Source: an uncultured bacterium
GTDB taxonomy: Bacteria > Patescibacteriota > Minisyncoccia > Phycocordibacterales > Phycocordibacteraceae
Direction: 5' to 3'
NCBI GenBank assembly: GCA_937879955.1
Contig: CALFMK010000001.1
Span: forward strand, 201,578 to 265,577
DNA length: 64,000 nt
The stretch's first letter is position 1. Each line of letters starts with the position of its first letter. Shown in pieces: positions 5,551 to 38,515 of the stretch. The notes under the pieces are model-generated. The model was not told the DNA's origin, did not search any database, and saw nothing but the letters and a program-made list of their open reading frames with translations. A program made the position numbers and the translations under genes.

Positions 5551-5582
5551 AGGCCACCGCATGTCGGTGGCCTGTTCTTTTA
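5551..5582 (+). terminator. Rho-independent terminator
   Basis: aggccaccg-catgt-cggtggcct followed by gttctttt, immediately after the stop at 5540-5542. Confidence 0.6.
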
Positions 5583-5667
5583 AAAGCTTGCTGGCAGTCT
5601 GGGACGATGTTGGAACTTTTAAGAAGCCAGTGGTAAGTTCCGTTCAGAGCAACTGAGGAGAACGCCG

Positions 5668-5910
5668 ATGCCAGGAGGTATCTTGCTTCCACAAGAAAGT
5701 CATATCCTTGGGGAGCGCATAGCTACTCGCAGAAAGGAGAAGGGATTAACGCAGCTACGGCTTGCTGAGAGCCTGGACGTTGAGCGGTGCATGATTAGCT
5801 ACTACGAGACCGCCAAGGTACCCATAACCGTTGAGAAGCTCCTTCTCGTCTGCAGGGTACTTGATACTCCCATATCCTACTTTCTCGAAGGACTCGACCA
5901 CACGCATTAG
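5668..5910 (+). CDS. XRE-family (Cro/C1-type) helix-turn-helix transcriptional regulator
   Basis: LGERIATRRKEKGLTQLRLAESLDVERCMISYYETAK is a canonical HTH_3 motif; 80 aa. Confidence 0.7.
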   Translation: MPGGILLPQESHILGERIATRRKEKGLTQLRLAESLDVERCMISYYETAKVPITVEKLLLVCRVLDTPISYFLEGLDHTH

Positions 5911-5932
5911 TACGCGTGTGGTCTTTCGTTTC
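5898..5932. terminator. bidirectional hairpin terminator (HTH-gene stop codon lies in the loop)
   Basis: ccacacgc-attagtac-gcgtgtgg followed by tctttcgtttct. Sits between the convergent HTH gene (+) and tRNA-Gln (-). Confidence 0.5.
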
Positions 5933-6006
5933 TGGCTGGGAGACTAGGGATCGAACCTAGATTGAGGGCTTCAAAGGCCCCTGTCCTACCATTAGACGAT
6001 CTCCCA
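5933..6006 (-). tRNA. tRNA-Gln (anticodon UUG), CCA encoded
   Basis: Minus-strand cloverleaf folded by hand: acceptor TGGGAGA/TCTCCCA, D-arm GTCT..GGAC, anticodon stem GGGGC/GCCCT with loop CTTTGAA, T-arm CTAGG-TTCGATC-CCTAG, then GCCA. Confidence 0.8.
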
Positions 6007-16129: not shown

Positions 16130-17728
16130 ATGACCACCGTCAAGGAGATACTCGCCCAGATGAGCGGCCTCACGCCAGAGGAGACCGCGCTGATCGAGAA
16201 GGCCTACGAGTTCGGTAGGAACGCGCACAAGGACCACACCCGGTACTCCGGCGAGCCCTATTTCATACACCCTGCGGCGGTCGCGAAGCATCTCGCCGAG
16301 CTCGGCATGGACGCGCCGACGGTAGCGGCCGCGCTCGTCCATGACACCATCGAGGACGTCGGCACCACCCCCGAGGAGATCGGCGCAGCGCTCGGTCCTG
16401 AGGTGCTCTTCCTCGTGGAAGGCGTGACCAAGCTCGGCAAGCACAAGTACCAGGGCGGCGAGCGCCATGCAGAGTCCTTGAGGCGGCTCCTCGTCGCGAC
16501 CGCGTCCGACGTGCGCGTGCTCATCGTGAAGCTCGCGGACCGCTACCACAACATGACGACCCTCGCGCACGTGCCGGAGGCGAAGCAGAAGCGCATCGCG
16601 CTCGAGACGCTCGAGATCTACGCGCCTATCGCGGACCGCCTCGGTATGGGTTCCATGAAGAAGGAGCTCGAGGACCTCGCGTTCCCTGCCATAGACCCTG
16701 ACGCGTACCAGCACGCGGTAGAGGTGCGGAAGTTGAAGAACAAGGAGACCGAGGCCGGCCTCGCGCGCGTCCAGAAGGAACTCCGCCACGCGCTCGCGCG
16801 CAAGGAGCTCAAGGACTTCTCGACCTCCGTGCGCACCAAGGGTCTCTGGAGCCTCCACCAGAAGCTGAAGCGCAAGGGCGACGACATCACGCGTATCCAC
16901 GATATCGCGGCCCTGCGCGTCGTGGTGCCCACCATCGACGACTGCTACACCGCGCTCGGCGTGATCCATTCCCTCTGGAAGCCGCTGCCGGGAGAGTTCA
17001 AGGACTACATCTCCTTCCCGAAGCCAAACGGCTACCAGTCCCTCCATACGACGGTCGTGACCGGGGACGCCGGCATCGTCGAGATGCAGGTGCGCACCAA
17101 GGACATGCACCAGCGTGCGCAGTTCGGTATCGCCTCGCACATGTCGTACAAGGCCCTCGCGAAGGATTCCGGCAAGACCGCCTTCCAGCGGCTCTCCTTC
17201 CCGTGGATCCGCGACCTCGTGCCTGCGCTCCTCAACATGAAGCGACCTGCCCCTGCCGCGAAGGACGTGCAGGCTTCTACCGAGATCCCGCGCTGGCTCA
17301 CCGATCTCAAGGAGGCGCATGCAGAGGTGGTGGGAAGCGACGAGTTCGTCGAAGGGCTCAAAAGCGACTTCTTCTCGCATCGCATATTCATCTTCACGCC
17401 GAAAGGCGACGTAATCGACCTTCCCACCGAGTCCACGCCCGTGGATTTCGCCTACGCCATCCACAGCGACCTCGGCGACCACATGCAGGGCGCGAAGGTG
17501 AACGGCAAGCTCGTGTCGTTCGACACGCAGCTCCGGAACGGCGACATCATCGAGATCCTCAAGTCGAAGTCCGCGCGACCGACGGCGAAGTGGATAGACT
17601 ACGCGCGCACGAGCATGGCGCGCCGCCACATCCGCGCGACGCTCGACGACACTGACCGCGCGCGCCCCTCGGGCGACAACCTGAAGCCGCGGAAGGACTA
17701 TCCGCGGAAGCAGAAGAAGGCGAAATAA
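16130..17728 (+). CDS. rel: bifunctional (p)ppGpp synthetase/hydrolase, RelA/SpoT family (short Rel, HD + synthetase + TGS)
   Basis: HD domain HDTIEDV, RelA_SpoT synthetase block (IHDIAALRVVV...GYQSLHTTV), TGS-like IFIFTPKGDVIDLP. Confidence 0.9.
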   Translation: MTTVKEILAQMSGLTPEETALIEKAYEFGRNAHKDHTRYSGEPYFIHPAAVAKHLAELGMDAPTVAAALVHDTIEDVGTTPEEIGAALGPEVLFLVEGVTKLGKHKYQGGERHAESLRRLLVATASDVRVLIVKLADRYHNMTTLAHVPEAKQKRIALETLEIYAPIADRLGMGSMKKELEDLAFPAIDPDAYQHAVEVRKLKNKETEAGLARVQKELRHALARKELKDFSTSVRTKGLWSLHQKLKRKGDDITRIHDIAALRVVVPTIDDCYTALGVIHSLWKPLPGEFKDYISFPKPNGYQSLHTTVVTGDAGIVEMQVRTKDMHQRAQFGIASHMSYKALAKDSGKTAFQRLSFPWIRDLVPALLNMKRPAPAAKDVQASTEIPRWLTDLKEAHAEVVGSDEFVEGLKSDFFSHRIFIFTPKGDVIDLPTESTPVDFAYAIHSDLGDHMQGAKVNGKLVSFDTQLRNGDIIEILKSKSARPTAKWIDYARTSMARRHIRATLDDTDRARPSGDNLKPRKDYPRKQKKAK

Positions 17729-17772
17729 GAAGAGCCGCTCGATATCGAGCGGCTCTTCTTATTTCGATTCGG

Positions 17773-18834
17773 TTAGACCGTGAAGCTGCTCACCGAGTAG
17801 AGGTCTTCCTCGGGCTCCTGCCGGACCGCAGGGAGCGGCGCGGGCGGGATCTCCGCGAGCTGCGTCGTGTTCGGATGGATAGGCATCGGCGAGAGCGGCG
17901 ATGGCACAGGATCGGGCTCTGAGGGGTCCGCTGCTGGCTGTGCCTCTTCCGCGAGGAGCGCCGCTTCGCGGGTAGCGAGCATCGTAGCGATATGCGAGAG
18001 GTCCTCCGGCGAGAAGAACTCGATGAGGAGGCGGCCGCCCTGCGGACGGTTCTCGATGAGGACGCGGGTGCCGAGCGTCTCCGTGAGGGACTTCTCGAGC
18101 GCCATCATCTCGGGCGTCTTGTCGTGCTTGCGGATCTTGTCCTGCGCGAGGCGGCGCGCCATCTGCTCAACCATGCGTACCGAGGTCTTCTTGAGCACGA
18201 TCTCCTTGAAGAGCGTGTCGCGCTCCTCGGGCTTGTCGTTCAGCATCAGGAGCGCGCGGGCATGTCCCTCGGAGAGCTCCTTGCCCACCACCGCCTGCTG
18301 GATGGCCTCAGGGAGCATGAGGAGGCGGATCGAGTTCGAGACGTACTCGCGCGAGCGGCCGATCTTCGCACCGATCTCCGCGTGCGAGATGGCGAAGGTC
18401 TCGGCGAGCTGCGCCAGCGCCTTCGCACGGTCTATGGCATTGAGGTCCTCGCGCTGGAGGTTCTCGATGATGGCGAGCTCGAGCTTCATCTTGTCCGTCT
18501 GCTCGCCTGCGCGGATCACGACCGGCACCTCCTTGAGGCCGATGAGCTTGGAGGCCCTCAGGCGGCGCTCTCCGGCGATGAGCTGGTAGAGGGCCTGGAT
18601 GCCGCCCTCGGCCTTCTCGACCTCCTTGCGGGTCACGACGAGCGGCTGGAGCACCCCGTACTGCCGTATGGACTCCGCGAGCGCCTTGAGGCGCTCTTCG
18701 TCGAACTCGACGCGCGGCTGGTACGGGTTCGGCTCGATACGGCTCACTTCAACCCAGTACACCGAGTCGTACTTCGTCGGCTGTACGAACGATTCCCCCT
18801 GCTGATTCCCGGACATAGTCATGATGAGAGTCAT
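17773..18834 (-). CDS. parB: chromosome partitioning protein ParB/Spo0J with extended Pro-rich C-terminus
   Basis: VSRIEPNPYQPR, GERRLRASKLIGL (ParB box), HTH region ISHAEIGAKIGRSREYVSNSIRLL. Confidence 0.9.
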   Translation of the reverse strand: MTLIMTMSGNQQGESFVQPTKYDSVYWVEVSRIEPNPYQPRVEFDEERLKALAESIRQYGVLQPLVVTRKEVEKAEGGIQALYQLIAGERRLRASKLIGLKEVPVVIRAGEQTDKMKLELAIIENLQREDLNAIDRAKALAQLAETFAISHAEIGAKIGRSREYVSNSIRLLMLPEAIQQAVVGKELSEGHARALLMLNDKPEERDTLFKEIVLKKTSVRMVEQMARRLAQDKIRKHDKTPEMMALEKSLTETLGTRVLIENRPQGGRLLIEFFSPEDLSHIATMLATREAALLAEEAQPAADPSEPDPVPSPLSPMPIHPNTTQLAEIPPAPLPAVRQEPEEDLYSVSSFTV

Positions 18835-18914
18835 TGTATCATCGCGCCTCCGCTTTGCAGGAGCGAGACCTGTGAAGTACGATTACCTGCGTGCCGATAC
18901 GTCGGTGCGCATCG

Positions 18915-18942
18915 GTGCACGGCGCGTACGCGCGCCGTGCAC
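18915..18942. repeat. GC-rich inverted repeat (12-bp arms, 4-nt spacer) in parB upstream / tRNA-Leu upstream region
   Basis: GTGCACGGCGCG-TACG-CGCGCCGTGCAC, perfect arms. Confidence 0.6.
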
Positions 18943-18983
18943 AACCGTTCGGGGAGCCGAGGGTACGCCCTCGCCCCGAATAT

Positions 18984-19065
18984 GCCGGGGTGGCGGAGTT
19001 GGTATACGCGGCGGATTCAAAACCCGCTCCCGCAAGGGTCGAGGGTTCGAGCCCCTCCCCCGGCA
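18984..19065 (+). tRNA. tRNA-Leu (anticodon CAA), class II long variable arm, no encoded CCA
   Basis: GCCGGGG acceptor pairs with CCCCGGC. Anticodon loop TTCAAAA as in E. coli Leu-CAA. T-arm GAGGG-TTCGAGC-CCCTC. Frame anchored to ORF track 18891..19262. Confidence 0.85.
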
Positions 19066-19094
19066 CAACCGATTTAAATATTCTAAAGCTGTGT

Positions 19095-19100
19095 TATAAT
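19095..19100 (+). promoter_or_regulatory. -10 TATAAT box upstream of small basic ORF
   Basis: gtgttataat about 24 nt upstream of ATG 19125; AGGAGG SD at 19114-19119. Confidence 0.4.
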
Positions 19101-19124
19101 AGGCTCGATCAAGCAGGAGGGCCA

Positions 19125-19262
19125 ATGATCAAGTTCTTTGTGCGCACCATGAGGGCATGGCGCAAGTACCGCTCCCAGAGGAAGCGGATGACACGGAAAT
19201 TCTGTCCGGACAGGTTCAACAGGAATCTCACCCGAACAACGCAAGACCGCACCGTGGCCTGA
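19125..19262 (+). CDS. small highly basic protein (45 aa)
   Basis: MIKFFVRTMRAWRKYRSQRKRMTRKFCPDRFNRNLTRTTQDRTVA. Perfect SD AGGAGG 6 nt upstream, TATAAT upstream, intrinsic terminator downstream. Confidence 0.5.
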   Translation: MIKFFVRTMRAWRKYRSQRKRMTRKFCPDRFNRNLTRTTQDRTVA

Positions 19263-19285
19263 ACGGCCGCTACGCGATGCGCTCA

Positions 19286-19322
19286 CGCCCGGCTGATTCT
19301 TCAGCCGGGCGTTCACTTTTTA
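19286..19322 (+). terminator. Rho-independent terminator
   Basis: cgcccggctga-ttct-tcagccgggcg then ttcactttttactg. Confidence 0.6.
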
Positions 19323-19349
19323 CTGCATCATTGCCGCTTCGTATTCCGT

Positions 19350-19547
19350 TTGATACGCTACCTCTTCCCGCTATCACAGGAGCTTCCAGTAATGCTGTTT
19401 GGTGCGTTCTCTACCGTTCTGCTCCCTCTGACCTTCGGAGCGATCCTTGGTCCCCTTCCCGCTGACTCGGACGACCCGTCCGAGTGCGAGCACGGCTCAG
19501 GGATCGAATGGGCGGCTGTAAACCTCACATCCAAGAAGGAGCCCTGA
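19350..19547 (+). CDS. small protein with N-terminal hydrophobic helix and acidic tail (65 aa)
   Basis: MIRYLFPLSQELPVMLFGAFSTVLLPLTFGAILGPLP...; AGGAG SD 8 nt upstream of ATG. Confidence 0.4.
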   Translation: MIRYLFPLSQELPVMLFGAFSTVLLPLTFGAILGPLPADSDDPSECEHGSGIEWAAVNLTSKKEP

Positions 19548-19554
19548 TACGGGC

Positions 19555-19590
19555 AAGGGCCGTCGCGATGCGACGGCCCTTTTTGCTTTC
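19555..19590. terminator. bidirectional Rho-independent terminator (small ORF / peroxiredoxin)
   Basis: aagggccgtcgc-gatg-cgacggccctt followed by tttgctttc. Confidence 0.6.
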
Positions 19591-19597
19591 TTCGCCC

Positions 19598-20260
19598 TTA
19601 GATCTTGCCGACGAGGTCCATGCCCGGCTCGAGCGTGTCGTCTCCCGGCTCCCACGATGCCGGACATACCTGCCCTGCATGGCTCTCGACGAACTGCGCC
19701 GCCTGGAGCTTGCGGAGGGTCTCCTTCGCCGCGCGGCCGATGCTGTTATCGTTCACCTCCATGGCGCGGAGCGTGCCGGACGGGTCGACGATGAAGGTGC
19801 CGCGGAGCGCGAGGCCCTCGTCCGGGACGAACGGGAGGTCGCCGCCCTCGATGAGCACGCCGAACGCGTCCGCGATCTTGCCGGTCGGGTCAGCGCCCAT
19901 CGGGAAGGCGATCTTCTTGATCGCCTCCGAGGTATCGTGCCACGCCTTGTGCACGAAGACGGTGTCGGTCGAGAAGGACACGACCTCGGTATTGATCGCC
20001 TGCATCTTCGGGTAGAGCAGGGCCATCTCCTCGAGCTCCGTCGGGCAGACGAACGTGAAGTCCGCCGGATAGAACATCACGACGAGCCACTTGCCGCGGA
20101 AGTCCGAGAACTTCATCATCCGCACGTCGTCCTTGTGATAGGCCTCGAACTCGTAGTCAGGCACGGTCTCGCCGACCCGCACGCTCGACCGGTACTCGCG
20201 GAACGGATCATGGAAATCCCCGCACTCGCCGCAATAGTTGCTTTTCTGTTCCTTGTTCAT
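19598..20260 (-). CDS. 2-Cys peroxiredoxin (AhpC/TSA family) with N-terminal Cys-containing extension
   Basis: FTFVCPTE peroxidatic Cys motif and resolving Cys in QVCPASW. Extra N-terminal NYCGECGDFHD segment. Confidence 0.85.
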   Translation of the reverse strand: MNKEQKSNYCGECGDFHDPFREYRSSVRVGETVPDYEFEAYHKDDVRMMKFSDFRGKWLVVMFYPADFTFVCPTELEEMALLYPKMQAINTEVVSFSTDTVFVHKAWHDTSEAIKKIAFPMGADPTGKIADAFGVLIEGGDLPFVPDEGLALRGTFIVDPSGTLRAMEVNDNSIGRAAKETLRKLQAAQFVESHAGQVCPASWEPGDDTLEPGMDLVGKI

Positions 20261-20280
20261 GGTGCTGTTTCGTTACGTAG

Positions 20281-21144
20281 ATGCATGATACCATTTCGGC
20301 CATCGTGAACCGAACGGACGACCCTTCCCCCATACTGTGCGTCGTAGGCCCCACGGCCTCCGGCAAGTCCGCGCGCGCGGTCGCGCTCGCGAAGGAGCTC
20401 GACGGCGAGGTTATCTCCGTCGACTCCCGTCAAGTGTATCGCATGCTCGATATCGGGACCGAGAAGACGACCCTCGAAGAGATGGACGGCATCCCGCATC
20501 ATCTCATCGACATACGCGACCCGAGGGAGACCTATAGCGCGGGCGACTTCGTGAAGGACGCCGAGCGGTTGATCGAGGAGATTCGCGCCCGCGGGAAGCG
20601 CCCGATCCTCGCCGGCGGCACCCACTTCTACTTCGACGCGCTCCTCTACGGCCTTCCGGAGACCACGGAACCGGACCTCGCACTGCGCGCGGCGCTCGAG
20701 AAGCGCTCCGAGGAATCCCTCATGCAGGAGATACGCGAACGGGACCCGCGCCGAGCCGAGCGCATCGATCCGATGAACAAGCGACGCCTGGTCCGCGCGC
20801 TCGAGATAATCGCCACGCATGGCCACGTGCCCGAGCGCGACACGGCAGAAGCCCGCCATGCCGTTGAGTGGGTGGTGCTCAATCCTGAGCGCGACGAGCT
20901 CCGCGAGCGCATCGAGAAGCGCCTCGAGCGGGCGCTCGATAACGGTCTCATCGAGGAGGTGCGGAAGGTGCGCGAGTATGTCGGCGACGCACGGCTCGAC
21001 GAGCTCGGCCTCGAGTACCGCATCATCGGCGAGTACCTGCGGGACGAGCGCAGCCTCGAATCATTGCTGCCATCCCTCTCATCGAAGGTCTGGCATTACG
21101 CGCGGCATCAGAAGTCCTGGCTGCGCAGGCTCGAGGCCGCGTAG
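20281..21144 (+). CDS. miaA: tRNA dimethylallyltransferase
   Basis: P-loop VVGPTASGKSARAVALA, ISVDSRQVYR, DIGTEK are MiaA family hallmarks. Confidence 0.9.
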   Translation: MHDTISAIVNRTDDPSPILCVVGPTASGKSARAVALAKELDGEVISVDSRQVYRMLDIGTEKTTLEEMDGIPHHLIDIRDPRETYSAGDFVKDAERLIEEIRARGKRPILAGGTHFYFDALLYGLPETTEPDLALRAALEKRSEESLMQEIRERDPRRAERIDPMNKRRLVRALEIIATHGHVPERDTAEARHAVEWVVLNPERDELRERIEKRLERALDNGLIEEVRKVREYVGDARLDELGLEYRIIGEYLRDERSLESLLPSLSSKVWHYARHQKSWLRRLEAA

Positions 21145-22068
21145 CTATCGGCCCGTCGGCGACCAGTGCACCGGATCGTCCGGGATGGCGTTGCGGAAGT
21201 TCCACTTTCCCCCGTTCGCCTTCAGCCACTGGTACGCCTTCGTGTTGCAGCTGCTGTTCCCGTTCGAGCAGCCGACGTTCAGGTCGAGCGCCTGTCCGGA
21301 GTTATGGTTCGATCCTGCGCCGCCGAGCGAGCATGGCATCGCGGTGGCGACGCGGCAGGTGCCGGTGGAGACGGAGCAGCCGTTCTGGTTCCAGAGCGCG
21401 ACCTGCGCCGCGTCCGAGCGGTACGCGCTCGTCACCTTCAGGTCCACGCCGTCCTTGAGCGCTGCGGCGCGCATGTCCATGAAATTCTTGACCGTCGTAG
21501 GCGTGGCCTTGCCTGAACCGCCTATGACCACCGAAGCGTCGAACGATACCATGGTCGACTCGGCAGGGACCGGGCAGTTCGTGCCAGTGCCGCCTCCGGT
21601 GCTGCCGGACGGCGCGCCCGGGACCGCGGTGATGGAGCCGTCGAAGAGGGGCGTGGTCGGCTTCGCCTCGATGCAATTCTCTCCGGTCGCGTCGAGAAGT
21701 ATCGAGTTCCAAGGACCGAACTGCCCGCCGTAGAGCGTCTTCATCACGAAGTCCACGATGAGCCATGCCGAGAGCACGATGCAGAGCCCAACGAACGCGT
21801 TCAGGAGCATGCTGCTCGCCGTGCCGCGCATCTCGGGGTTCGTCGGGGAGAGTATGTAGAGCCCGCCTGCCCACGCGACGATGATGGTCGCCACGATGAT
21901 AGAGATGCCGATGAGGAGGTTCGAGACGTTCTGGATGATGGCGAGCACGCCGCCGAACCCGCACGGGCACACCTGGCAGACGTCCGGCACGATCGGGCCG
22001 AACTGCGCATGCGCGTAGACCGGCACGAGCATGAGGAACGCGATGATCAAGGGAAGAAATCGTCTCAT
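21145..22068 (-). CDS. fusion protein: N-terminal TrbC/VirB2-like pilin-type membrane domain plus C-terminal peptidase M15 (VanY / D-Ala-D-Ala carboxypeptidase-like) domain
   Basis: Signal peptide MRRFLPLIIAFLMLVPVYAHA. Two-helix domain GFGGVLAIIQNV...LSAWLIVDFVMKTL is paralogous to the VirB2-like array at 38589-40511. C-terminal SAYRSDAAQVALW...HNSGQALDL resembles the M15 zinc-peptidase signature (SxxRxxxxQ...HxxGxAxD). Confidence 0.6.
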   Translation of the reverse strand: MRRFLPLIIAFLMLVPVYAHAQFGPIVPDVCQVCPCGFGGVLAIIQNVSNLLIGISIIVATIIVAWAGGLYILSPTNPEMRGTASSMLLNAFVGLCIVLSAWLIVDFVMKTLYGGQFGPWNSILLDATGENCIEAKPTTPLFDGSITAVPGAPSGSTGGGTGTNCPVPAESTMVSFDASVVIGGSGKATPTTVKNFMDMRAAALKDGVDLKVTSAYRSDAAQVALWNQNGCSVSTGTCRVATAMPCSLGGAGSNHNSGQALDLNVGCSNGNSSCNTKAYQWLKANGGKWNFRNAIPDDPVHWSPTGR

Positions 22069-22070
22069 GC

Positions 22071-22640
22071 TTATGGAAGACGGAACGACCCCTGACAAAA
22101 GCTGAGGCCCAGGTTCTGATAGGCCGAGAAGGCCTCGTTCACGCTGTACGGGACCCCGACGAGGATATCGAGCGTGCAGAGCTGTGCGTCCGTGAGCTCG
22201 AGCGTGTCGCGCAGGAACGCTTCCGCGGCGAGGCGCGAGGCGCCGAGCGGCTCCTCGTTCAGCGTCACGACGAACTGCGACCCCTCCTGATTGAACTGCA
22301 CGTCGAACGCGTGCGTCGGGTACGGCTTCCCTGGCTCGTAGTCAGGATAGGGCGTGAGGTCGTACTGCAGGTTCGTGGCACCCTCGCCGATCTGGACCGA
22401 GCTCTTTCCGGTCGTGAAGTCCGGCACGTCCACGGACTCCTGGTCCGCCGTCTCGATCGTGCGCGTCGTCACCGTCGCGCCAGACGTGCCGTCGGTGAGC
22501 GATCCGAACGGATTCGTTCCGGTCGGGCTTGTAGGGACGGTGCCCGTCGACTGCCCCTGAGAGAGGAGCACGTACGCGAGCACGGCGATGCCGAGGAGTA
22601 CGAGGACGACCGCGCTGCCGATGATCACCGATGTCTTCAT
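22071..22640 (-). CDS. membrane-anchored hypothetical protein (TM, Thr/Gly-rich linker, globular C-terminal domain)
   Basis: MKTSVIIGSAVVLVLLGIAVLAYVLL... ATG at 22638-22640 overlaps the upstream gene stop (ATGA). 2-nt gap to the downstream gene start. Confidence 0.5.
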   Translation of the reverse strand: MKTSVIIGSAVVLVLLGIAVLAYVLLSQGQSTGTVPTSPTGTNPFGSLTDGTSGATVTTRTIETADQESVDVPDFTTGKSSVQIGEGATNLQYDLTPYPDYEPGKPYPTHAFDVQFNQEGSQFVVTLNEEPLGASRLAAEAFLRDTLELTDAQLCTLDILVGVPYSVNEAFSAYQNLGLSFCQGSFRLP

Positions 22641-23647
22641 AGGCCCATGATACCAAACGCGAGCGGCCGGCTTTGCATGCTGTCCGCGAGCCCGCACTTC
22701 TTCGCGGCGCCCCACGGCGACCATGTCGCATGCGCGTCGAGATAGATCTTGTGCGCGGTAGCGATGTTGTTCGCCGGATTGATGGCGGCGGCCCTGCACT
22801 TGTTATAGAGCGTAGCGTCAACGACGCGGACGCCTGACCCTGCGCCGCACGAGCTCACGGTGCAGCTCTGCTTGCTGAAAGCGGCCGGACAGTTCAGTCC
22901 GCCTATCTTGTGCGCCGTTATGTTTATCTGGAACAGGCCGAACGAGTACGGCGTGCCGTCCCCGAGCCTGTCCACGCCGCTCGGGAGGCTCGCGTTGCCG
23001 TGGCTCTCGCCATAGCAGACCCGGGAGGCATTCTCCGCCGCCGTGCCGAACACGCCAAGCGCGCTCACCGCGCAGGAGCCGCTCGTCTGCGCGAGACAGG
23101 TGCCTCCTCCCGTGCTCTTGGTGGAAGTGCCTGTTCCACTATCCTGTCCAGGAATCCAGGTGATCTTGCCGTCGAAGAGCGGCTTCGTGTCCGTAGCCGT
23201 GACGCACACGTTCCCGCCCGAGAGGATCGTATTCCACGGCCCCCAGCCCTCGAGGTTCTGGTTGTAGAGGAGCTTCATCACGAAATCCACGATGAGCCAG
23301 GCCGAGAGGATGATGAGCAGCCCTATGGCGGCGTTCGTGAGCACCTTCTTCGCCTGCGAATGGTTCTCGGGGTTCGTAGGCGTCAGGATCCAGAGGATGC
23401 CGGCGAACGCGATCACGATGACGCAGATGATGATGCCGAAGGAAACCGACGCGTTCATCAGGTTCTGGATGAGCTGCAGCACGCCGCCGAATCCGAGCGG
23501 CGCCCCTACCGGGCAGTTGCTGTCGAGATCGTGCGCTTCCGGGACGAGCTGCCAGTTCGGATCGAGGAGCGGAAGGGACTGCGCGGACGCCGCAAATGGC
23601 AGGCACAGGAGAAGCGCGAGGAGGAGCGGGGCCCAGAGCCGGTTCAT
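22637..23647 (-). CDS. fusion protein: N-terminal TrbC/VirB2-like pilin-type domain plus C-terminal lytic transglycosylase (SLT/VirB1-like lysozyme-fold) domain
   Basis: Signal peptide MNRLWAPLLLALLLCLPFAASA. N-domain GFGGVLQLIQNL...LSAWLIVDFVMKLL is paralogous to gene 21145-22068. C-terminal CYGESHGNASL...YSFGLFQINITAHK fits the SLT catalytic E-S ... GLxQI motif. Confidence 0.6.
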   Translation of the reverse strand: MNRLWAPLLLALLLCLPFAASAQSLPLLDPNWQLVPEAHDLDSNCPVGAPLGFGGVLQLIQNLMNASVSFGIIICVIVIAFAGILWILTPTNPENHSQAKKVLTNAAIGLLIILSAWLIVDFVMKLLYNQNLEGWGPWNTILSGGNVCVTATDTKPLFDGKITWIPGQDSGTGTSTKSTGGGTCLAQTSGSCAVSALGVFGTAAENASRVCYGESHGNASLPSGVDRLGDGTPYSFGLFQINITAHKIGGLNCPAAFSKQSCTVSSCGAGSGVRVVDATLYNKCRAAAINPANNIATAHKIYLDAHATWSPWGAAKKCGLADSMQSRPLAFGIMGL

Positions 23648-23749
23648 GGAATGATTGTAGCCCGGAGGACCGCAGAGGACGCGTTCTTTTCCCCTTCCCG
23701 CCTATCTGGTATCGTACGGATACGCGCCGTCCTGAGACGCTAACTGACA

Positions 23750-23820
23750 GGGTCCATAGTTTAGTGGTAGAACATCGGTCTCCAAAACCGATAGTGTAGG
23801 TTCGATTCCTACTGGGCCCG
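23750..23820 (+). tRNA. tRNA-Trp (anticodon CCA), no encoded CCA
   Basis: GGGTCCA acceptor, D-arm GTTT-AGTGGTA-GAAC, anticodon stem TCGGT/ACCGA with loop CTCCAAA, T-arm GTAGG-TTCGATT-CCTAC. Frame anchored via antisense ORF 23702..24043. Confidence 0.85.
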
Positions 23821-23995
23821 CATATAAATTAAGAAACCACGCGTAGATGCGTGGTTGAAAGTGAAGCCGTGCTCCGCTCAGTGACATTTCGACACCATTG
23901 CCTGACGACATAGTCAGAAGTGGGCATTGAGTGGCCAAGGAGTGCAAGGAACACGACTTCAGATATATCGTAGCACTAAAGACTCTTGATTTCCG

Positions 23996-24016
23996 TTCGA
24001 ATCCCGCCCCACAGGA
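23996..24016 (+). other. tRNA 3'-half-like fragment (T-loop/acceptor-like GTTCGAATCCCGCCCC)
   Basis: 16-nt identity with the T-arm/acceptor of tRNA-Leu(TAA) at 35141-35226. No complete cloverleaf could be folded around it. Confidence 0.3.
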
Positions 24017-24100
24017 CCCGCATAGCAGGAGAAAGATCCGCAAAAAGAAGCCGCCCCGGTCATGAAGACCGAGGCGGATATGTCAGGCTGGCGTACGGAT

Positions 24101-24496
24101 TCAGTCCTGTTGCTTCACGACCCCTTGTTCCAGCTGAGTGAATATGTCAGCCAGCGGGAGATGGCCAGCTCTAGGCTCTGCCTCCCTCTTCGGCTTCGAG
24201 CGTTCCATCCGAGCGAATATGTCGGCCAGAGGCAGATTGTCGGCTTCAGGTCCTACCTCCTCCGGCTTCAATTGTTCCAGCTGAGTGAATATGTCATTGA
24301 GCGGAAGAGGGCCGGCTTGAACCGCTGCCTCCTCCCTCGGTATCGATTGTTCCGGCTGATCCACTATCTCAGCCTGCGGCAAAGGGTGGCCCATCGATTC
24401 AATGCAGAGCATATCCACCCTAGACGGAAAGGTCTTGTAGTCAAAATCAGACGGTAGACCGATGCGCTTACAGAGAGTGTCAATGTCACTAACCAT
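24101..24496 (-). CDS. acidic repeat protein (3-4 tandem LPLADIFTQLEQ-type repeats), unknown function
   Basis: Four degenerate ~75-nt tandem DNA repeats. Protein repeats GPLPLNDIFTQLEQ / DNLPLADIFARMER / GHLPLADIFTQLEQ. Strong promoter and SD upstream. Confidence 0.55.
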   Translation of the reverse strand: MVSDIDTLCKRIGLPSDFDYKTFPSRVDMLCIESMGHPLPQAEIVDQPEQSIPREEAAVQAGPLPLNDIFTQLEQLKPEEVGPEADNLPLADIFARMERSKPKREAEPRAGHLPLADIFTQLEQGVVKQQD

Positions 24497-24516
24497 AGAG
24501 TAAGGTCCTCTTTTCT

Positions 24517-24551
24517 AGTATACATTATAGACTATAATGTATATATGTCAA
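24517..24551 (-). promoter_or_regulatory. consensus sigma70-type promoter (-35 TTGACA, 16-nt spacer, -10 TATAAT) overlapped by a 12-bp perfect palindrome
   Basis: Minus strand reads TTGACA-tatatacattatagtc-TATAAT ... AAAGAGGA ... ATG(24496). Palindrome TATACATTATAG-A-CTATAATGTATA at 24519-24543 spans spacer and -10. Confidence 0.6.
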
Positions 24552-24579
24552 TACTCTCGGCCTTGCCGTCCTCTCGCGG

Positions 24580-27231
24580 CTAGCGCTTCACCACCTGGTA
24601 GATCTTCTGGGTCCGGTACACGTCGCCTGCCGGCACAGGGACGCCGCTCAGCGTGCCGGCGTACGGGCGGAGGTAGTACTTGATGTACCCGTCGGAGCGT
24701 TCCTGGAGGGACGATGTCTCGCGCGCGTTCGATTGGTACACGGGATCCGCGTAGTGGCGGTCCACCTCGTCCATGTTGAGCATGCGCGCGAGTATGCCGT
24801 AGCTGTCGTTATAGAAGGCTGCGGTGAGGAGGCGCGGGGCGACAGGATGCGTCGAGTCGGTATGCGCGGTGTACGCGGTCGCGTCCGGGTCAGGGATGCT
24901 CGTCCCGAACAGCTCGAAGCCTCCATCAGCGCCTGCGTTGCCGACGCTCGTATCCGGCCCCACGAGCATCAGCGCGTAATCTTCCTTGACCACCGAGTCC
25001 ACCGCCAGGGTGCGGGTGACGTCAGGGATGTAGCCCTTCGAGGTCACGAGCAGGTCATAGTCTACGTCCGCCGCCTTCGAGCTGTCTTCAGCGAACGTGA
25101 GCATGGTCGAGAATTGCGCCCGCATGCGGTCACCTATCCATGTCGTGCCGTTCGCGGCGCTCGCATAGTCTATCGGCGCGCCGTCCATGGATATGACGAG
25201 ATCGGCAGGACCCGTCTCGTGGCCGTGCGTGCCTCCGATGAACGCGGAGGCCGAAGGATCCGATCCTTGCTTATAGAGGTTTACGGCGAGCTCTATGTTA
25301 CCGACTCCGATCACGGTCGTGTTGCCGATCGTCTCCGGGGTCGTCCGCTCGTCCTGACCCATGTCATCGAACTCATCGACGCCAAGCGTTCCAACCTGCG
25401 TCTCATCGCTTATCATCAGGCCGCCGTCGTAGACGCGGTATCCGGTGGACGAGGCATTCTTCGTAGGCAACCCCTCGAGCGTGAGCACGTAGCTTGCCTT
25501 GTCGAGCCCGCTTGCCAGAGGAGTGCTCTTGACGGAGGTCCCGGCGCTGTACGTGTCCACGTCCTTCGTGGTGACGAGCGTACCTGCCTGATCATAGACC
25601 GACGCGCGGACGATGCCTCCCGTAGAGAGATAGCCGGCCCTCCAGTCTATCTTGGTGCCTGTGAACGGATAGACGATCGCTCCGCCCGGGAACAGCGTCC
25701 GGTTGACCGTCTGGGACGCGAGCGTGGTGCTCTGCCATGAGCTCAGCAGTCCCTTCGTCGTGATGCGATCGAGGGACGGGTAGGTCTGCATGCCGCCGTC
25801 ATACACTCGCCCATTTACAGGATTCGATGACGAGACGGCGATATCAACGGTATACGTTCCGGCAGGAAGCCCTGTCGCGAGCGCGACAAACTGGATGCCT
25901 GACGAATTACCCGTCAGATTGACCTGGCGCTCGCCGCCTGTAAGCGGTATGGCGTAATGCTCAGAGCTTATCTCGACTCCGCTCGTCTTGATGGTTATGG
26001 CAGCGATGCCTGCGCCACTCGCCTGTCCAAGGGTCCGCCACACGATTCGATCATTGGTGTCTATCGTTACGGTATACGTGGTCCGGTCACCTGGCGTCTG
26101 AGAGTAGATGATATCCGTGACGCCGCTGTTGGTCGCAGGCCCGACGAACGTCCCGGTACGGGAGCCCGCGCTCGTTCCCTGCGAGGTCTTTGACGAGGTC
26201 GCCTGCGTGCCGGAGACGGAGTTCGCGGCAGGCAGAGACTCGACGAAGCTTGCGTAGAGCTTGGCTATGGAGGCCCGGCGCATGCGCGCAGGCCCGGCGA
26301 GTCCCGGGTTCAGCCGTTCGCTGAAGAACCAGCGCACGTAATCCGTCCCGCCGAGCGGCGCGTAGACGACAAACTCGTCATAATCGCTTCGCAGCTTCTT
26401 GAGGAGAAGGGGCTCGAGATCATCCTCGCCCGTAGTGAACGTGAGGTCAGAAGAAGGAGTGGCGTTTCCTTCCGCATCGGCAGACCGCACGCGGAAGTGG
26501 TAGGTAGCGAACGCGGTAAGGCCGGTAAGCGTTATGGAATGGGACGTAACGAGCGTCGCCGAGGTGGATGCCGTGCCGTACGACGTCGTGGTTCCGAAAT
26601 CAACGCGCGAATCGCTCGGCTCGTCCGTGGTCCAGGTGATGGTCGCGGTGGTCTGGGTCACGGAAGAATCGATATCCGAGATGCTCGGCGCCGCCGGCAC
26701 TGCGGCGGGAGAGCTGCTCTTGTGCCCTCCGCTCCTCTTGGGTGCATCGATAGATGGTGCGCCGGTCGTTATGGACTCTGACGCGGCGATGGTCGCCTGA
26801 TCGAGCATTCCCGTGAGCGAGACGGCGTAGTACCCCGCGTTCCGCAGGAGCTGCTGAAGCTGGGTGATGAGCGAGGAGAGGAAAGATGGGGATGGGGATG
26901 GGGATGCAATGATGCTATCTGAAGATGTAGGGGATGCAATAACCTCCCCGTTTAGGATCGCGCGTGTCGCAGGCCCTACGTAGCCGAGAGATTCGAGTCC
27001 TTGGGACTTCTGGAAGTCCGCAACGGCCTGGAGCGTTACCTGGCCGTAGTAGCCGGTGACGTCCGCATTGAAGAAGCCCTTCTCCTTGAGAAGGGTCTGG
27101 AGCGCGGAGACGTCGGACCCGCTCATGCCCTTCTCGAGTGGGCGCTCGAACGTCGCTGCGGAGGCGAAGGGAGGCACGAGCAAGAACGCCACGAAGAAAG
27201 CGAAAGACGCCTTGCGGAAGCCAGAGAGCAT
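24580..27231 (-). CDS. large secreted cell-wall-associated protein (signal peptide, peptidoglycan-binding domain, fibronectin type III domain, beta-rich C-terminal region)
   Basis: Signal peptide MLSGFRKASFAFFVAFLLVPPFASA (ORF track extends to 27324). PG_binding_1-like block LEKGMSGSDVSALQTLLKEKGFFNADVTGYYGQVTLQAVADFQKSQGL. FN3-like ITWTTDEPSDSRVDFGTT...YHFRVRSAD. Confidence 0.65.
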   Translation of the reverse strand: MLSGFRKASFAFFVAFLLVPPFASAATFERPLEKGMSGSDVSALQTLLKEKGFFNADVTGYYGQVTLQAVADFQKSQGLESLGYVGPATRAILNGEVIASPTSSDSIIASPSPSPSFLSSLITQLQQLLRNAGYYAVSLTGMLDQATIAASESITTGAPSIDAPKRSGGHKSSSPAAVPAAPSISDIDSSVTQTTATITWTTDEPSDSRVDFGTTTSYGTASTSATLVTSHSITLTGLTAFATYHFRVRSADAEGNATPSSDLTFTTGEDDLEPLLLKKLRSDYDEFVVYAPLGGTDYVRWFFSERLNPGLAGPARMRRASIAKLYASFVESLPAANSVSGTQATSSKTSQGTSAGSRTGTFVGPATNSGVTDIIYSQTPGDRTTYTVTIDTNDRIVWRTLGQASGAGIAAITIKTSGVEISSEHYAIPLTGGERQVNLTGNSSGIQFVALATGLPAGTYTVDIAVSSSNPVNGRVYDGGMQTYPSLDRITTKGLLSSWQSTTLASQTVNRTLFPGGAIVYPFTGTKIDWRAGYLSTGGIVRASVYDQAGTLVTTKDVDTYSAGTSVKSTPLASGLDKASYVLTLEGLPTKNASSTGYRVYDGGLMISDETQVGTLGVDEFDDMGQDERTTPETIGNTTVIGVGNIELAVNLYKQGSDPSASAFIGGTHGHETGPADLVISMDGAPIDYASAANGTTWIGDRMRAQFSTMLTFAEDSSKAADVDYDLLVTSKGYIPDVTRTLAVDSVVKEDYALMLVGPDTSVGNAGADGGFELFGTSIPDPDATAYTAHTDSTHPVAPRLLTAAFYNDSYGILARMLNMDEVDRHYADPVYQSNARETSSLQERSDGYIKYYLRPYAGTLSGVPVPAGDVYRTQKIYQVVKR

Positions 27232-27320
27232 TAGAAAGAGTATATCACTTGCGTCTGCACCGTTGAGCAGAAAGCCAACATAGAAAAAGAGGCGGCACGA
27301 ATGCCGCCTCATGTAGTGAC

Positions 27321-27791
27321 TCACGCTGCGAGCTCTCCCGTCCTGGACGCGTCACGCGCGAACGACAGGACGGCGAACGGATCATTGAGCGAGAACGCCA
27401 CATGCGCGCTCGTCGCCTCATACCTCAGTTCCTGGATCTCCAGATTCCAAGACCCGTCCTTGTAATTGGCCATGAGGATCCGGACGGTTCCTTCGGCGTC
27501 GAGCACATGGAACGAGTAGCTCCCAGGCGGAGCTTCCCGGAGGAAATGGAACGCATGCGCCCACGCGACCGACAGCTTCTCGGCCGGCAGGCGCGGCATG
27601 AGCTGCGCCATCGCGACCGCCTGCACGTCGCGCTCGACGATCGCGCCCTCCTTCAGGAGCTCCTTGAGCCTCTGGCCGATCAGGCTGATCTTCAGCGCGC
27701 CGTCCGACCCGACCTTGAAATGGTCCTGGACGTCGAAGTAGTCGACCGCGAGCACGGTAGCGACCGGAATACGATTCTCTTGGAACGGCAT
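27321..27791 (-). CDS. hypothetical protein
   Basis: ATG at 27789-27791 (MPFQENRIP...). Upstream in-frame extension looks non-coding. Confidence 0.4.
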   Translation of the reverse strand: MPFQENRIPVATVLAVDYFDVQDHFKVGSDGALKISLIGQRLKELLKEGAIVERDVQAVAMAQLMPRLPAEKLSVAWAHAFHFLREAPPGSYSFHVLDAEGTVRILMANYKDGSWNLEIQELRYEATSAHVAFSLNDPFAVLSFARDASRTGELAA

Positions 27792-28042
27792 GGTCCCTCT
27801 CCTTATGAAAGAACGTGCTGACAATAGAACAAAGACACGGATACATGTCAAAGCCCGGAAACGTATTGACAGGAAAAACGGCCTCGTGTACATTACTTGA
27901 ACGTTCGCGAGTCAGCAGGTTTCGGCCAGCGGAATCGCGATCGTACTGGAAAAACCCTCCTCGGAGGGTTTTTCCATTTCTCCTCCGACCTATTTTCAAT
28001 ACGTACAGAAAAACCGCCCTTCTGGGCGGTTTTTCTTTCTTC

Positions 28043-28195
28043 TTACTTCTTGACCTCCTTGTAGGTCTCGCGCTTCCTGGTGTTCGGATCGAACTTGAGG
28101 AGCTCGATCTTGCGCTCTACCTTCTTCTTGTTCTTGCGAGAAAAGCGCACGTGGCCGGAAGCCGACTTGAGCTTGATGAGACGATCCTGTGACAT
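28043..28195 (-). CDS. rpmG: 50S ribosomal protein L33
   Basis: MSQDRLIKLKSASGHVRFSRKNKKKVERKIELLKFDPNTRKRETYKEVKK aligns with E. coli L33 (...[29 protein letters not shown]). Confidence 0.85.
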   Translation of the reverse strand: MSQDRLIKLKSASGHVRFSRKNKKKVERKIELLKFDPNTRKRETYKEVKK

Positions 28196-28217
28196 AGATA
28201 GGATGACTATACCAGCC

Positions 28218-30899
<2,682 letters not shown>

Positions 30900-36624: not shown

Positions 36625-36727
36625 CATACGACGTATCTATTGACTTTTAGTCAATTTAGGTGTTAAAATATATCCAGACAACGGTACCTTGAGAGCAAGG
36701 TGCATTAGCTATCGAAGGAGATTCGCG

Positions 36728-37861
36728 ATGAGCCCACAACACGAAGCGGATCCCTCGGATCCGCGCATTAAGGCCGTCGAGGTCCACCCTGGACTCTACA
36801 AGGCCCTTATTTACGCCACACTGGGCGCCTATGGCGTACTGCTGCTGGTCGCAATCGCGACCTGGAACATCACGCCGATTCCCCATCTGAACATCGGCTT
36901 CCCGATCATCGCGATCGTGGTAGCGCATTTCTGCTCCTCATGGGGCGCGGTACAGACGGATGAATGGGCGGCACTCTACTTCTACGGTCGCGCGTTGCGA
37001 CAACTGAAGTCCGGTCCGTATTTCATGCCGAGAGGCCTGATGCAGATCGTGAAAGTGCCCAAAGGTCTCAAGCAGGCCCAGGCACCCGGGGAGCCAGAAG
37101 AAATATTCCACGGCGACGATAAGGAGCCTCTCCCTATCATGCCGAACGGCAAGCAGATGGTACGACCCATCCGCGTGACGACGAGAGCCCCAAAGGAAGG
37201 CGAGACTGGTCATCTGGACGTACAGATGACCTATGAGTGGTCATTCTACTACCAGTATCAAGTCCTCGACCTCTTTCAGTTCATCGCCACCGTCGGAAGC
37301 TTCGAAGAGGCTTCGCGCCTCATCAGAGACACCGGCGAGGCGACACTGAACGAGTTCGCATCAGACATGACCGTGAACGGCATGATCGTGAACCTGAAAC
37401 AAATCAATCAGGCGCTCGATAACCGGATACGCGAACTGGTCAACGCATGGAGCATGCAGGTCTATGAGGTGAAGGCACTTGCGCCCAATCTCTCGCACGG
37501 CCTCGCCACCGCCCTGCGTAACCTCCCGATCGCCAGACTCGAGGCCGAACAGGCCGAGACGGCTGGCAAGGGGGCGCGCCGCAGGATGGAAGAAGAGGGT
37601 GCAGGCGCGGCAGCGGCCAGGGCAGCGATGCTCCAAGCCGAAGCCACGGGCCGCGAGCAGTTTCTCAAGGCCGAAGCGAACGGACTTAAGGCGAAGAAAG
37701 ATGCTCTCGATATAAGCGGCGAGGACATCCTCGTTGGCGAAGTCGCGAGCGACGCCTTGAAGCACGCTGACAGTCTAATGGTCGGCGCCGGAGACGGTGT
37801 CCGAGACCTACTCGGCATGGTCAAGGCTGGCGCGTCGGTCTTGAACGGAAAGAAGGAGTAG
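36728..37861 (+). CDS. SPFH/band-7 domain protein (stomatin/prohibitin-like)
   Basis: N-terminal TM segment, SPFH core (LDVQMTYEW...VNGMIVNLKQINQALDNRIRELVNAWSMQVYEVKA), Ala/Glu-rich coiled-coil tail. SD GAAGGAGA 7 nt upstream of ATG 36728. Confidence 0.7.
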   Translation: MSPQHEADPSDPRIKAVEVHPGLYKALIYATLGAYGVLLLVAIATWNITPIPHLNIGFPIIAIVVAHFCSSWGAVQTDEWAALYFYGRALRQLKSGPYFMPRGLMQIVKVPKGLKQAQAPGEPEEIFHGDDKEPLPIMPNGKQMVRPIRVTTRAPKEGETGHLDVQMTYEWSFYYQYQVLDLFQFIATVGSFEEASRLIRDTGEATLNEFASDMTVNGMIVNLKQINQALDNRIRELVNAWSMQVYEVKALAPNLSHGLATALRNLPIARLEAEQAETAGKGARRRMEEEGAGAAAARAAMLQAEATGREQFLKAEANGLKAKKDALDISGEDILVGEVASDALKHADSLMVGAGDGVRDLLGMVKAGASVLNGKKE

Positions 37862-37864
37862 GGC

Positions 37865-38515
37865 ATGGATTATATCTTTGGCCCCATACTCCTCTGGATC
37901 CCGATTGTCATCGTAGTCCTCGCGATCTGGTGGTTTAGCACCCACCGATCGGTCACCGTGAAGGCTCTCCATGTCAATGGACACGCTCCAGCGAAACCGA
38001 GCGAACCTGCACATCACAAAGATCACAAAGAAGATGATCATGGGCATGGTGGACACGGCCATGGGCATAACGAGACGCCGGCTTGGATTCATCTGCTAGG
38101 CTGGTGCGTGGCCATCGCCGTCGCGGCACTCATCGCGCTCTTCTTGCGGTGGTGTTACGTGACGTACGGCCTCGGCCAGATACCCGGCCCGTCGCGAGAA
38201 GTCCGAGAGGAGATCTCGCGACGGAACGGTTCCCACGGGATATCGGAGGTACCACCCTCCGATGCCCGGACCTGTTCCAGCGACCCAGCGTACAAGGTCG
38301 TGATCCAACCGGGAACGCGCATTACCGTGCACATCCCCCGGGATACCACGATCGACTTCAAGCCTGACACGAGCGAGGGGAATATCACGGCGTGCAGCTT
38401 CAGGAAGCCTGAGATCTGCTCGTCGAGCCTCCGCCGCATCAAGGGACACATCGACTACCTCACGATCACGAACGTCAGCGAGAATCCGGTGGACTTCACC
38501 TGCCGTTACCTGTGA
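37865..38515 (+). CDS. membrane protein with His-rich loop (HKDHKEDDHGHGGHGHGH) and C-terminal beta domain; possible NfeD-like SPFH partner
   Basis: Two TM helices flank a His-rich segment. 4 nt downstream of the SPFH gene (operon). Confidence 0.5.
   Translation: MDYIFGPILLWIPIVIVVLAIWWFSTHRSVTVKALHVNGHAPAKPSEPAHHKDHKEDDHGHGGHGHGHNETPAWIHLLGWCVAIAVAALIALFLRWCYVTYGLGQIPGPSREVREEISRRNGSHGISEVPPSDARTCSSDPAYKVVIQPGTRITVHIPRDTTIDFKPDTSEGNITACSFRKPEICSSSLRRIKGHIDYLTITNVSENPVDFTCRYL

Follow-up and report, generated by a model that had tools for sequence, protein, structure and literature searches.

Islander-type islands at tRNA and transfer-messenger RNA (tmRNA) genes carry an intact tRNA gene at one end and displaced 3′ fragments of it as direct repeats, have an atypical composition, differ between strains at the repeats, and take on a tandem layout through repeated use of the site; they are kilobases to tens of kilobases in size (PMC4383910). 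In the tycheposon islands of Prochlorococcus, which are tRNA-adjacent islands of a streamlined cyanobacterium, successive integrations at the same tRNA push older elements inward and leave remnants and scattered partial tRNAs, and the elements are kilobases long and carry tyrosine or serine recombinases as well as replication modules (bioRxiv 10.1101/2020.12.28.424599). Integron cassette arrays consist of mostly single-gene, co-oriented units that are each closed by a related short site, grow at one end beside a fixed anchor, and hold many orphan genes (PMC1382264). The region described here has likenesses to all three and lies directly 3′ of the tRNA-Trp gene in a 64,000-nt stretch (contig CALFMK010000001.1, positions 201,578 to 265,577; "the window") from an uncultured bacterium of the candidate phyla radiation (CPR). 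The low-GC islet behind this gene is read, with a probability of roughly 0.6, as the tRNA-proximal end of a hypervariable region that is anchored on the tRNA-Trp 3′ end and built of inserted and lost modules. IMEX elements at dif and the dif modules of Acinetobacter plasmids offer a further comparison, being small, tandem, devoid of their own recombinase, and bounded by copies of a host-type site.

The features listed for Islander-type islands are found at this locus, apart from size: its units are 0.2–1.5 kb long with one or two genes. It also differs in that no integrase was found in or near the region, its sites have approximately 5 extra nt between a T-loop-like part and the T-stem 3′ strand, and one gene of the islet, encoding a protein of 131 amino acids (aa), is not bracketed by repeats. 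Tycheposons are matched in the streamlined host, the tRNA-adjacent position, the apparent inward displacement of older units by repeated use of one tRNA, and the remnants with partial tRNAs. Unlike tycheposons, the modules are minimal, the hallmark genes are absent, and the host is a CPR bacterium in which the modules are presumed to be mobile. As in integrons, the units in relatives are mostly single-gene and co-oriented, each is closed by a related short site, growth appears to take place beside a fixed anchor, and many genes are orphans. The locus was nevertheless rejected as an integron because the defining features (intI, attI, and Pc, with promoterless attC cassettes) were not found: the sites are tRNA-like and not attC hairpins, the anchor is a tRNA gene, and most modules have their own promoter instead of Pc. 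The sites likewise resemble a tRNA 3′ end and not the 28-bp XerC/XerD dif site, and any involvement of Xer would be pure conjecture. The locus thus fits tRNA-anchored island building, from which it differs by the absence of an integrase, the minimal promoter-bearing units, the extended sites, and the CPR host; no description of such arrays in CPR was found in the literature searched.

The anchor of the array, tRNA-Trp(CCA) at 23750–23821 (+), is intact (ARAGORN; Rfam RF00005 tRNA, 73.8 bits). An initial annotation had pointed to a fall in GC content directly 3′ of it and to a fragment near 24000 resembling the 3′ half of a tRNA, and both were recovered; all sequence features that it listed proved to be present where it had placed them and to go beyond chance expectation. 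GC content is 0.518 over 23822–24579 against a window mean of 0.629 (standard deviation 0.034 for 758-bp windows), a value below 0.54 being reached in only 23 of 1265 such windows of the 64-kb stretch; in 200-bp windows it is 0.455–0.585 across 23700–24699 and approximately 0.60–0.69 on both sides. The fragment, at 23995–24024 (+), is the sole match with three or fewer mismatches to the tRNA-Trp 3′ end on either strand of the 64 kb. The islet of the initial annotation consists of two parts, a gene-less 200-bp remnant module (23824–24024, GC 0.49), delimited by the tRNA end and the partial tRNA copy, and the transcription unit of the 131-aa gene.

The position of the module boundaries is seen most directly in a sister strain (L001, a 13.2-kb contig from run SRR14271336), which was found through the only other member of the 90% cluster of the 131-aa protein, differing from it by one residue. 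This contig is 98–98.5% identical to the window at 17734–30299, and the sole break in the alignment is made by 654 extra bases (47% GC) in L001 directly 3′ of tRNA-Trp. The two BLAST segments of L001 overlap on the window at 23807–23823, which takes in an identity block, CCTACTGGGCCCGCAT (23808–23823, +), composed of the T-stem 3′ strand, the acceptor 3′ strand, the discriminator, and 3 further nt; this block would be the attB site. In L001 the 654-bp module is bounded by the repeats CCTACTGGGCCCGCAT and CCCACAGGGCCCGCAT, with a left junction ...CCTACTGGGCCCGCAT|TTGACTTTTT... and a right junction ...GTCCCACAGGGCCCGCAT|ATAAATTAAG..., and the empty junction of the window reads ...CCTACTGGGCCCGCAT|ATAAATTAAG..., so that the breakpoints of this presence/absence polymorphism fall exactly at the repeats. 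The module comprises a TTGACT promoter right behind the repeat, an open reading frame (ORF) of 165 aa, a hairpin terminator, and a terminal partial tRNA-like site. Five homologues of the 165-aa protein were found (61–77% identity), and all four whose contigs were examined (P0004–P0007) are encoded directly downstream of tRNA-Trp in syntenic Paceibacterota loci. Divergence of the 165-aa protein from the window lineage (77, 69, 72, and 64%) falls between that of ClpB (87–92%) and that of the pilins (48–55%), and it tracks miaA (78, 83, and 66% at the three loci containing miaA), so the module is taken to be an old resident that the window genome lost precisely at the repeats. Across tRNA, islet, and promoter (23738–24723), L001 and the window differ at only 2 of 986 bp, compared with approximately 1.5–2% elsewhere; possible causes are that this segment was recently exchanged or swept between strains, or simply local heterogeneity, other 500-bp stretches also being without differences.

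Besides L001, ten further distinct tRNA-Trp loci were compared, and their left flank is conserved. At the four loci that encode homologues of the 165-aa protein, the order runs from ParB through peroxiredoxin, miaA, pilin-VanY, an unannotated gene, and pilin to tRNA-Trp, and from there through a variable part and a small-RNA-like unit to L33 and ClpB. The variable part was different in each species. Related genomes with the same content and a typical GC at this tRNA would speak against an integration scar; those compared carry different content. Most modules at these loci have a TTGAC promoter, and the right ends that could be read are usually a partial tRNA-Trp-like site. In L020, tRNA-Trp is followed by a 166-aa module, a site, and the small RNA; in L018 by a 166-aa module, a site, an NYN-domain gene, a degenerate site, and the small RNA; in L015 by a 113-aa module, a site, a 166-aa module, a site, and the small RNA; and in L019 by BtpA with an 89-aa gene, a site, and a 167-aa module. 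Compared with L018 and L020, L015 has an additional module at the tRNA-end junction. A metagenome scan using the 29-mer at the 3′ end of the window's tRNA-Trp gave eight more loci. The first modules of L037 and L038 differ (119 aa and 90 aa), each ending in GTTCGAAT...CCAGTGGGCCCG(C/T)AT, and the second module is common to both. In L041, CCTACTGGGCCCGCA is present in three perfect copies, at 0, +187, and +396. Among the proteins encoded just downstream of tRNA-Trp that were scanned, Pfam matches were limited to NYN in L018, BtpA in L019, and DUF1153 in L042, where the first module after the tRNA (783–1163) encodes a 126-aa protein with this domain (E = 2.6e-12); the model of the 166-aa family (predicted template modeling score 0.77) had no fold match in the PDB.

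The fragment in the window, GTTCGAATCCCGCCCCACAGGACCCGCATA, belongs to a family of module ends designated "type B". It begins with GTTCGAATCCCGCCCC (23995–24010), which is T-loop-like at its start, and over the final 16 nt it agrees with the tRNA-Trp 3′ end at 13 positions. It is 89% identical over 27 nt to the site that closes the 166-aa module in L020 and L021 and can be aligned with eleven other module-end sites, whose architecture is a GTTCGAAT-like part, approximately 5 extra nt, and a final part that copies the 3′ strands of T-stem and acceptor. Repeat-like sites bound modules in L001, L015, L018, L019, L020, L037, L038, and L041. One site type closes unrelated cargo (the 166-aa gene, the NYN gene, BtpA with the 89-aa gene, and the 200-bp remnant of the window), which argues that the site is functional and not a random relic. 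Another origin was considered for the fragment, whose first 16 nt equal the T-arm of tRNA-Leu(taa); this derivation was overruled by the orthologous sites of relatives and by the tRNA-Trp-like tail. A likeness of GGCCCGCATA to the XerC arm of dif, compared by eye, was dropped because the right arm is absent.

Several observations weigh against the modular reading. In several of the proposed sites, 4–5 of 15–19 positions depart from the tRNA end; such weak sites are, by sequence alone, near chance, and what lends them weight is that they stand at boundaries and are conserved between loci. The single precise deletion between L001 and the window could equally have come from slippage or short-homology recombination between repeats of 10–16 bp. 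No recombinase domain was found in the 43 window ORFs scanned with Pfam, in line with the statement of the initial annotation that no integrase remains, nor in the called genes of L015–L020. No attP-bearing element was found in viral contigs, where CCCACAGGRCCCGCAT had 13 matches, none of them tRNA-like, and the longer site pattern had 0; the tRNA-Trp 3′ pattern matched only a tRNA cluster of a jumbo phage. The 131-aa gene stands past the last partial tRNA and, opposite in orientation to the modules of relatives, points toward the tRNA; no att-like site was found at its far end or within 24025–27865 on either strand. The repeat at 23995–24024 bounds the 200-bp module only. The integration scar proposed in the initial annotation is therefore supported for the locus, by the 654-bp module of L001 at the repeats and the differing content of relatives, and only indirectly for the 131-aa gene, which is not bracketed by repeats and for which a foreign origin and site-specific arrival are suggested by position and composition only.

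The same observations could be accommodated if the partial-tRNA repeats were an old, inert scar, the 131-aa unit were unrelated to them, and the variability of the locus came only from relaxed selection in a stretch poor in genes, along with short-repeat deletions; the 131-aa gene would then have arisen in place, for instance by tandem amplification of a ~72-nt unit of intergenic DNA downstream of the neighboring 914-aa gene, or have come in by illegitimate recombination. Such an origin would agree with the position of the gene outside the repeat-bounded segment, its inverted orientation without a distal repeat, its composition of 4–5 internal repeats whose differences lack codon-position bias, the lack of a homologue (as for a young gene), and the lack of a recombinase among the scanned window ORFs; intergenic DNA is also generally lower in GC here, as are other tRNA flanks. 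Passive decay explains poorly, however, why unrelated genes occupy one position across species and are each closed by a similar ~27-nt site. A consensus promoter, a good Shine-Dalgarno sequence, a strong terminator, and a 25-bp palindrome would not be expected together in a young gene formed in place, and the GC content at third codon positions (GC3) of 0.60, against 0.83–0.89 in host core genes, suggests foreign or very recent DNA. An inert scar is considered unlikely.

Under the favored modular reading, the tRNA 3′ end would, in this clade, have seen small self-contained modules inserted, removed, and rearranged many times over; a typical module holds a single gene, a TTGAC-type promoter for it, and, where it could be read, a hairpin terminator. 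Recombination would act on short sites that copy the tRNA 3′ end, and each newcomer would displace older modules distally, with partial-tRNA repeats remaining between modules. The window genome would have lost the tRNA-proximal 165-aa module that L001 keeps, retaining the 200-bp remnant and one partial-tRNA site, distal to which an orphan transcription unit of foreign composition would lie on the opposite strand. The recombinase would presumably act in trans, as a host enzyme or one carried by a transient element, and the junction of the excised circle of the 654-bp module is predicted to read ...GTCCCACAGGGCCCGCAT|TTGACTTTTTAAATT.... A trans-acting, site-specific enzyme appears the most economical agent, given the repeated and position-exact gain and loss of unrelated modules with a common end site; we infer site-specific rather than short-homology recombination on these grounds. 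A bolder and more tentative version, which we hold to be improbable though somewhat less so than an inert scar, is a gene-capture platform without an integrase at Paceibacterota tRNA 3′ ends. One-gene, circularizable modules would each bear a ~27-nt site (the T-loop-like GTTCGAAT, approximately 5 nt, and a copy of the target tRNA 3′ end) and be moved by a recombinase in trans; the 131-aa orphan would be captured, tightly repressed cargo, and a similar arrangement may exist 3′ of tRNA-Gln.

The 131-aa ORF (24101–24496, −; ATG at 24496) is preceded by the Shine-Dalgarno sequence AAAGAGGA (24506–24513, −), which the initial annotation had also named and which lies 9 nt before the ATG, and is followed by an intrinsic terminator (24041–24077, −; an 11-bp stem with 9 G-C pairs, then CTTCTTTTTG) that the initial annotation had missed. 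Together with the promoter the unit is complete and correctly ordered. Neither 5.8 billion clusters nor 1.84 billion representatives, the latter scanned with full HMMER, gave any match to the protein other than itself, which is on record from a 591-kb contig. No Pfam or PADLOC match rose above noise, a PHROG match was weak (E = 0.005), and searches of the protein against phages (tblastn) and of the islet against plasmids (blastn) gave no match. The product would be acidic (isoelectric point 4.5, net charge −11), with a high content of Pro, Leu, Glu, Asp, and Gln, and would contain 4–5 tandem repeats of ~24 aa with the motif LPL(A/N)DIF(T/A)(Q/R)(L/M)E(Q/R), which had also gone unnoticed in the initial annotation. 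An AlphaFold2 model of the single sequence was of low confidence (predicted local distance difference test 56), with short helices on the repeats only, and the product is probably a disordered, multivalent short-motif protein. A comparison of the LPLADIF repeats with the C-terminal tail of FtsZ, as a possible mimic, was abandoned since they do not match the tail of the genome's FtsZ (...WGAIPSFLRRHKK).

Evidence that this ORF is coding is weak. GC3 is 0.60, compared with 0.83–0.89 in host core genes and 0.77 in the 914-aa gene; the first and second codon positions of the minus frame (GC1 0.66, GC2 0.38) show GC1 well above GC2 as in ClpB and look like those of a coding frame. Between the window and L001 the ORF has one synonymous and one non-synonymous change. 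Differences among the internal repeats number 6 at first, 13 at second, and 9 at third codon positions, so that no third-position bias signals coding selection. The promoter might instead make a non-coding or antisense RNA, or the real gene might be a plus-strand ORF, also of 131 aa (24062–24457), since an ORF of this length is present on both strands in register and the plus frame has a slightly higher GC3 (0.68 vs 0.60). Homologues for a selection test are lacking, and the low-confidence structure model would also agree with an untranslated ORF. The signals nevertheless suit the minus ORF only, for which promoter, Shine-Dalgarno sequence at 9 nt, and terminator are in order; the plus-strand ATG lies within the terminator stem and has no Shine-Dalgarno sequence. 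The minus frame is host-like in GC1 and GC2, the strain differences would both be non-synonymous in the plus frame, and the LPL(A/N)DIFTQLEQ motif is kept at the protein level. An untranslated minus ORF is thus very improbable, and translation is predicted from these signals.

The promoter of the unit is a sigma-70-type sequence on the minus strand (24524–24551), TTGACA (24551–24546), a 16-nt spacer, and TATAAT (24529–24524), and it matches the consensus at 12 of 12 positions, as the initial annotation had read it; approximately 0.002 such promoters would be expected per window from base composition. From its spacing, transcription is predicted to start at approximately 24516–24519. Consensus promoters had also been called rare in this genome, which did not hold within the window: five 10/12 sites lie elsewhere, and a second 12/12 promoter (TTGACA-18-TATAAT, 51966–51995, +) lies in the gap after a 458-aa ORF, ahead of a start near 52027. 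Apart from the palindrome itself, described below, only the −10 region of that promoter, TTATAATGGATA, comes close to the palindrome's half-site (2 mismatches).

On re-reading, the 25-bp palindrome reported over the spacer and −10 proved perfect (TATACATTATAG-A-CTATAATGTATA, 24519–24543; 12+1+12, arms 17% GC). It covers spacer positions 3–16, the −10 hexamer, and 5 nt further, ending at approximately −2 from the predicted start. The window contains 22 perfect inverted repeats whose arms reach 10 bp or more, and the other 21 have arms of 48–90% GC and are terminator-like; this is the sole AT-rich one, with a 1-nt center. By chance, approximately 0.07 inverted repeats with arms of at least 12 bp would be expected in the window. 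Operators that overlap the −10 or −35 occlude the promoter in phage lambda, LexA, and LacI-type control. The present dyad, known from its sequence, likewise has its center over the spacer and −10, in a promoter that is near-perfect, and it differs from those systems in having no second site and no linked regulator. Since the palindrome covers the spacer, the −10, and 5 nt beyond, a bound dimer would exclude RNA polymerase, and on this geometry the palindrome is most likely a putative operator for a dimeric repressor, which would keep a promoter of maximal strength silent until induced.

Other roles for the palindrome are less probable, though they are the least remote of the alternatives weighed here. 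Each arm contains a TATAAT or ATTATA element, so that two −10 sequences might stand face to face, with a plus-strand TATAAT at 24533–24538 allowing competing or bidirectional polymerase binding; the plus strand, however, has no usable −35 at 16–18 nt (CTTTTC or TCTTTT). No terminator separates the 914-aa gene from the promoter, and read-through RNA would carry an 11-bp hairpin with a possible role in processing or stability. This hairpin lacks a U-tract and has a folding z-score of only −1.8, for which reasons the palindrome was also rejected as the intrinsic terminator of the 914-aa gene. A target for recombination or for a nuclease is a further option. The absence of any other copy in the window (3 or fewer mismatches) would suit these roles, as would the lack of a linked regulator: the only small helix-turn-helix (HTH) protein seen in the window is XRE-type (5668–5910), and its gene is preceded by a repeated element that has no relation to the palindrome. 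In unrelated phages, a 19–21-nt core is also present within AT-rich repeat clusters of regulatory appearance, but the matches to the core ACATTATAGNCTATAATGT (5 in genomes of unrelated Firmicutes, 8 in phage contigs rich in AT) are at the frequency expected by chance for an AT-rich pattern of 18 specified bases. A perfect 12-bp dyad centered on the −10 and spacer has the classic geometry of repressor sites. Conservation is uninformative in this case, L001 being identical at the palindrome but also over nearly the whole islet. Nor are palindromes a general trait of module promoters, an idea that was dropped because few are significant, some have 7-bp arms, and most promoters have nothing significant; the module promoter of L041 has a 26-bp perfect palindrome, AACCACTATGATATATCATAGTGGTT, adjoining TTGACT.

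Window genes around the locus include two T4SS_pilin (PF18895) fusion proteins, ParB, RelA/SpoT, topoisomerase I, ClpB, and L33. This set is typical of CPR/Patescibacteria; the host is assigned to the Paceibacterota, and homologues of a neighboring module are annotated as Candidatus Paceibacterota. Apart from its terminal fragment, the 200-bp module (23824–24024) has no similarity to the other loci examined and is read as a decayed module or a displaced tRNA trailer. It contains a hairpin (AACCACGC-GTAGAT-GCGTGGTT, 23835–23856; p = 0.0045 against shuffles) that is probably a terminator or processing hairpin of tRNA-Trp. The hairpin after tRNA-Gln (GACCACACGC...GCGTGTGGTC, 5896–5923) is strikingly similar to it; both lack a T-run, and they may be a common tRNA 3′ processing or termination element. 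Distal to the last partial tRNA, a lineage-specific 3.8-kb segment (24025–27865, −) extends to the promoter of a conserved small RNA. It is missing at the tRNA-Trp locus of L015, L018, and L020, and its genes, all on the minus strand, encode the 131-aa protein, a 914-aa surface protein (PG_binding_1, fn3), and a 156-aa protein. Homologues of the 914-aa neighbor have only domains in common and therefore gave no information on synteny.

Between the variable region and the L33 gene lies a conserved small transcription unit (27866–28040, +, in the window; approximately 6590–6720 in L015, 7300–7420 in L018, and 2870–2990 in L020). It is made up of a TTGACA-17-TACATT promoter, a stem-loop of ~55 nt (ACGTTCGCGA...TCGCGATCGT, loop GGTTTCGGCC), and a strong terminator, and the stem has compensatory changes in L020 (GCGA:TCGC to GTGA:TCAC). 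No Rfam family matched it at threshold, and it may be an undescribed small RNA of the clade.

Other tRNA flanks were also noted. Directly 3′ of tRNA-Gln (5933–6006, −) is a low-GC flank (5100–5932, 0.49–0.52) encoding an 80-aa XRE-type HTH_3 protein (5668–5910) and a 118-aa orphan (5186–5542). A repeated element of ~70 nt precedes each of the two genes (approximately 5105–5175 and 5575–5640), and the second copy, on the tRNA strand, is similar to the 3′ end of tRNA-Gln if a gap of ~6 nt is allowed (its local score lies at the 99.9th percentile of background). A second tRNA may thus carry an array of this kind. In 36626–38515, a TTGACT-18-TAAAAT promoter lies 14 nt beyond tRNA-Leu(tag); its −35 forms a palindrome (TTGACT-TTT-AGTCAA), and the two downstream genes, encoding 390-aa Band_7 and 216-aa proteins, have a GC3 of only 0.72–0.73; this may be another acquisition at a tRNA flank. 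Beside tRNA-Leu(caa), L015 has a 111-aa LAGLIDADG_3 ORF (471–806) that is homing-endonuclease-like and is missing from the same gap in the window. A 46-bp perfect, loopless palindrome with 23-bp arms (17721–17766) lies between the convergent relA/spoT-like and parB genes and is far longer than the window's other terminator hairpins.

Bacteria of the CPR/Patescibacteria have tiny genomes and few recognizable mobile elements, and their gain and loss of genes are poorly understood. If the sites described here were inert scars, the locus would be an ordinary remnant of a tRNA-flank island. The region behind tRNA-Trp, with its single-gene steps each marked by a tRNA-like site, provides a sequence-defined model locus for gene flux in these organisms, and its consensus promoter with a perfect palindrome could serve as a switchable promoter for CPR genetics. 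Most of the module genes examined, the 131-aa gene included, have no recognizable family, which makes such a region a source of lineage-specific orphans. Should the modules be moved by a recombinase acting in trans, the locus would represent a gene-capture system built on a tRNA, parallel to integrons and dif modules.

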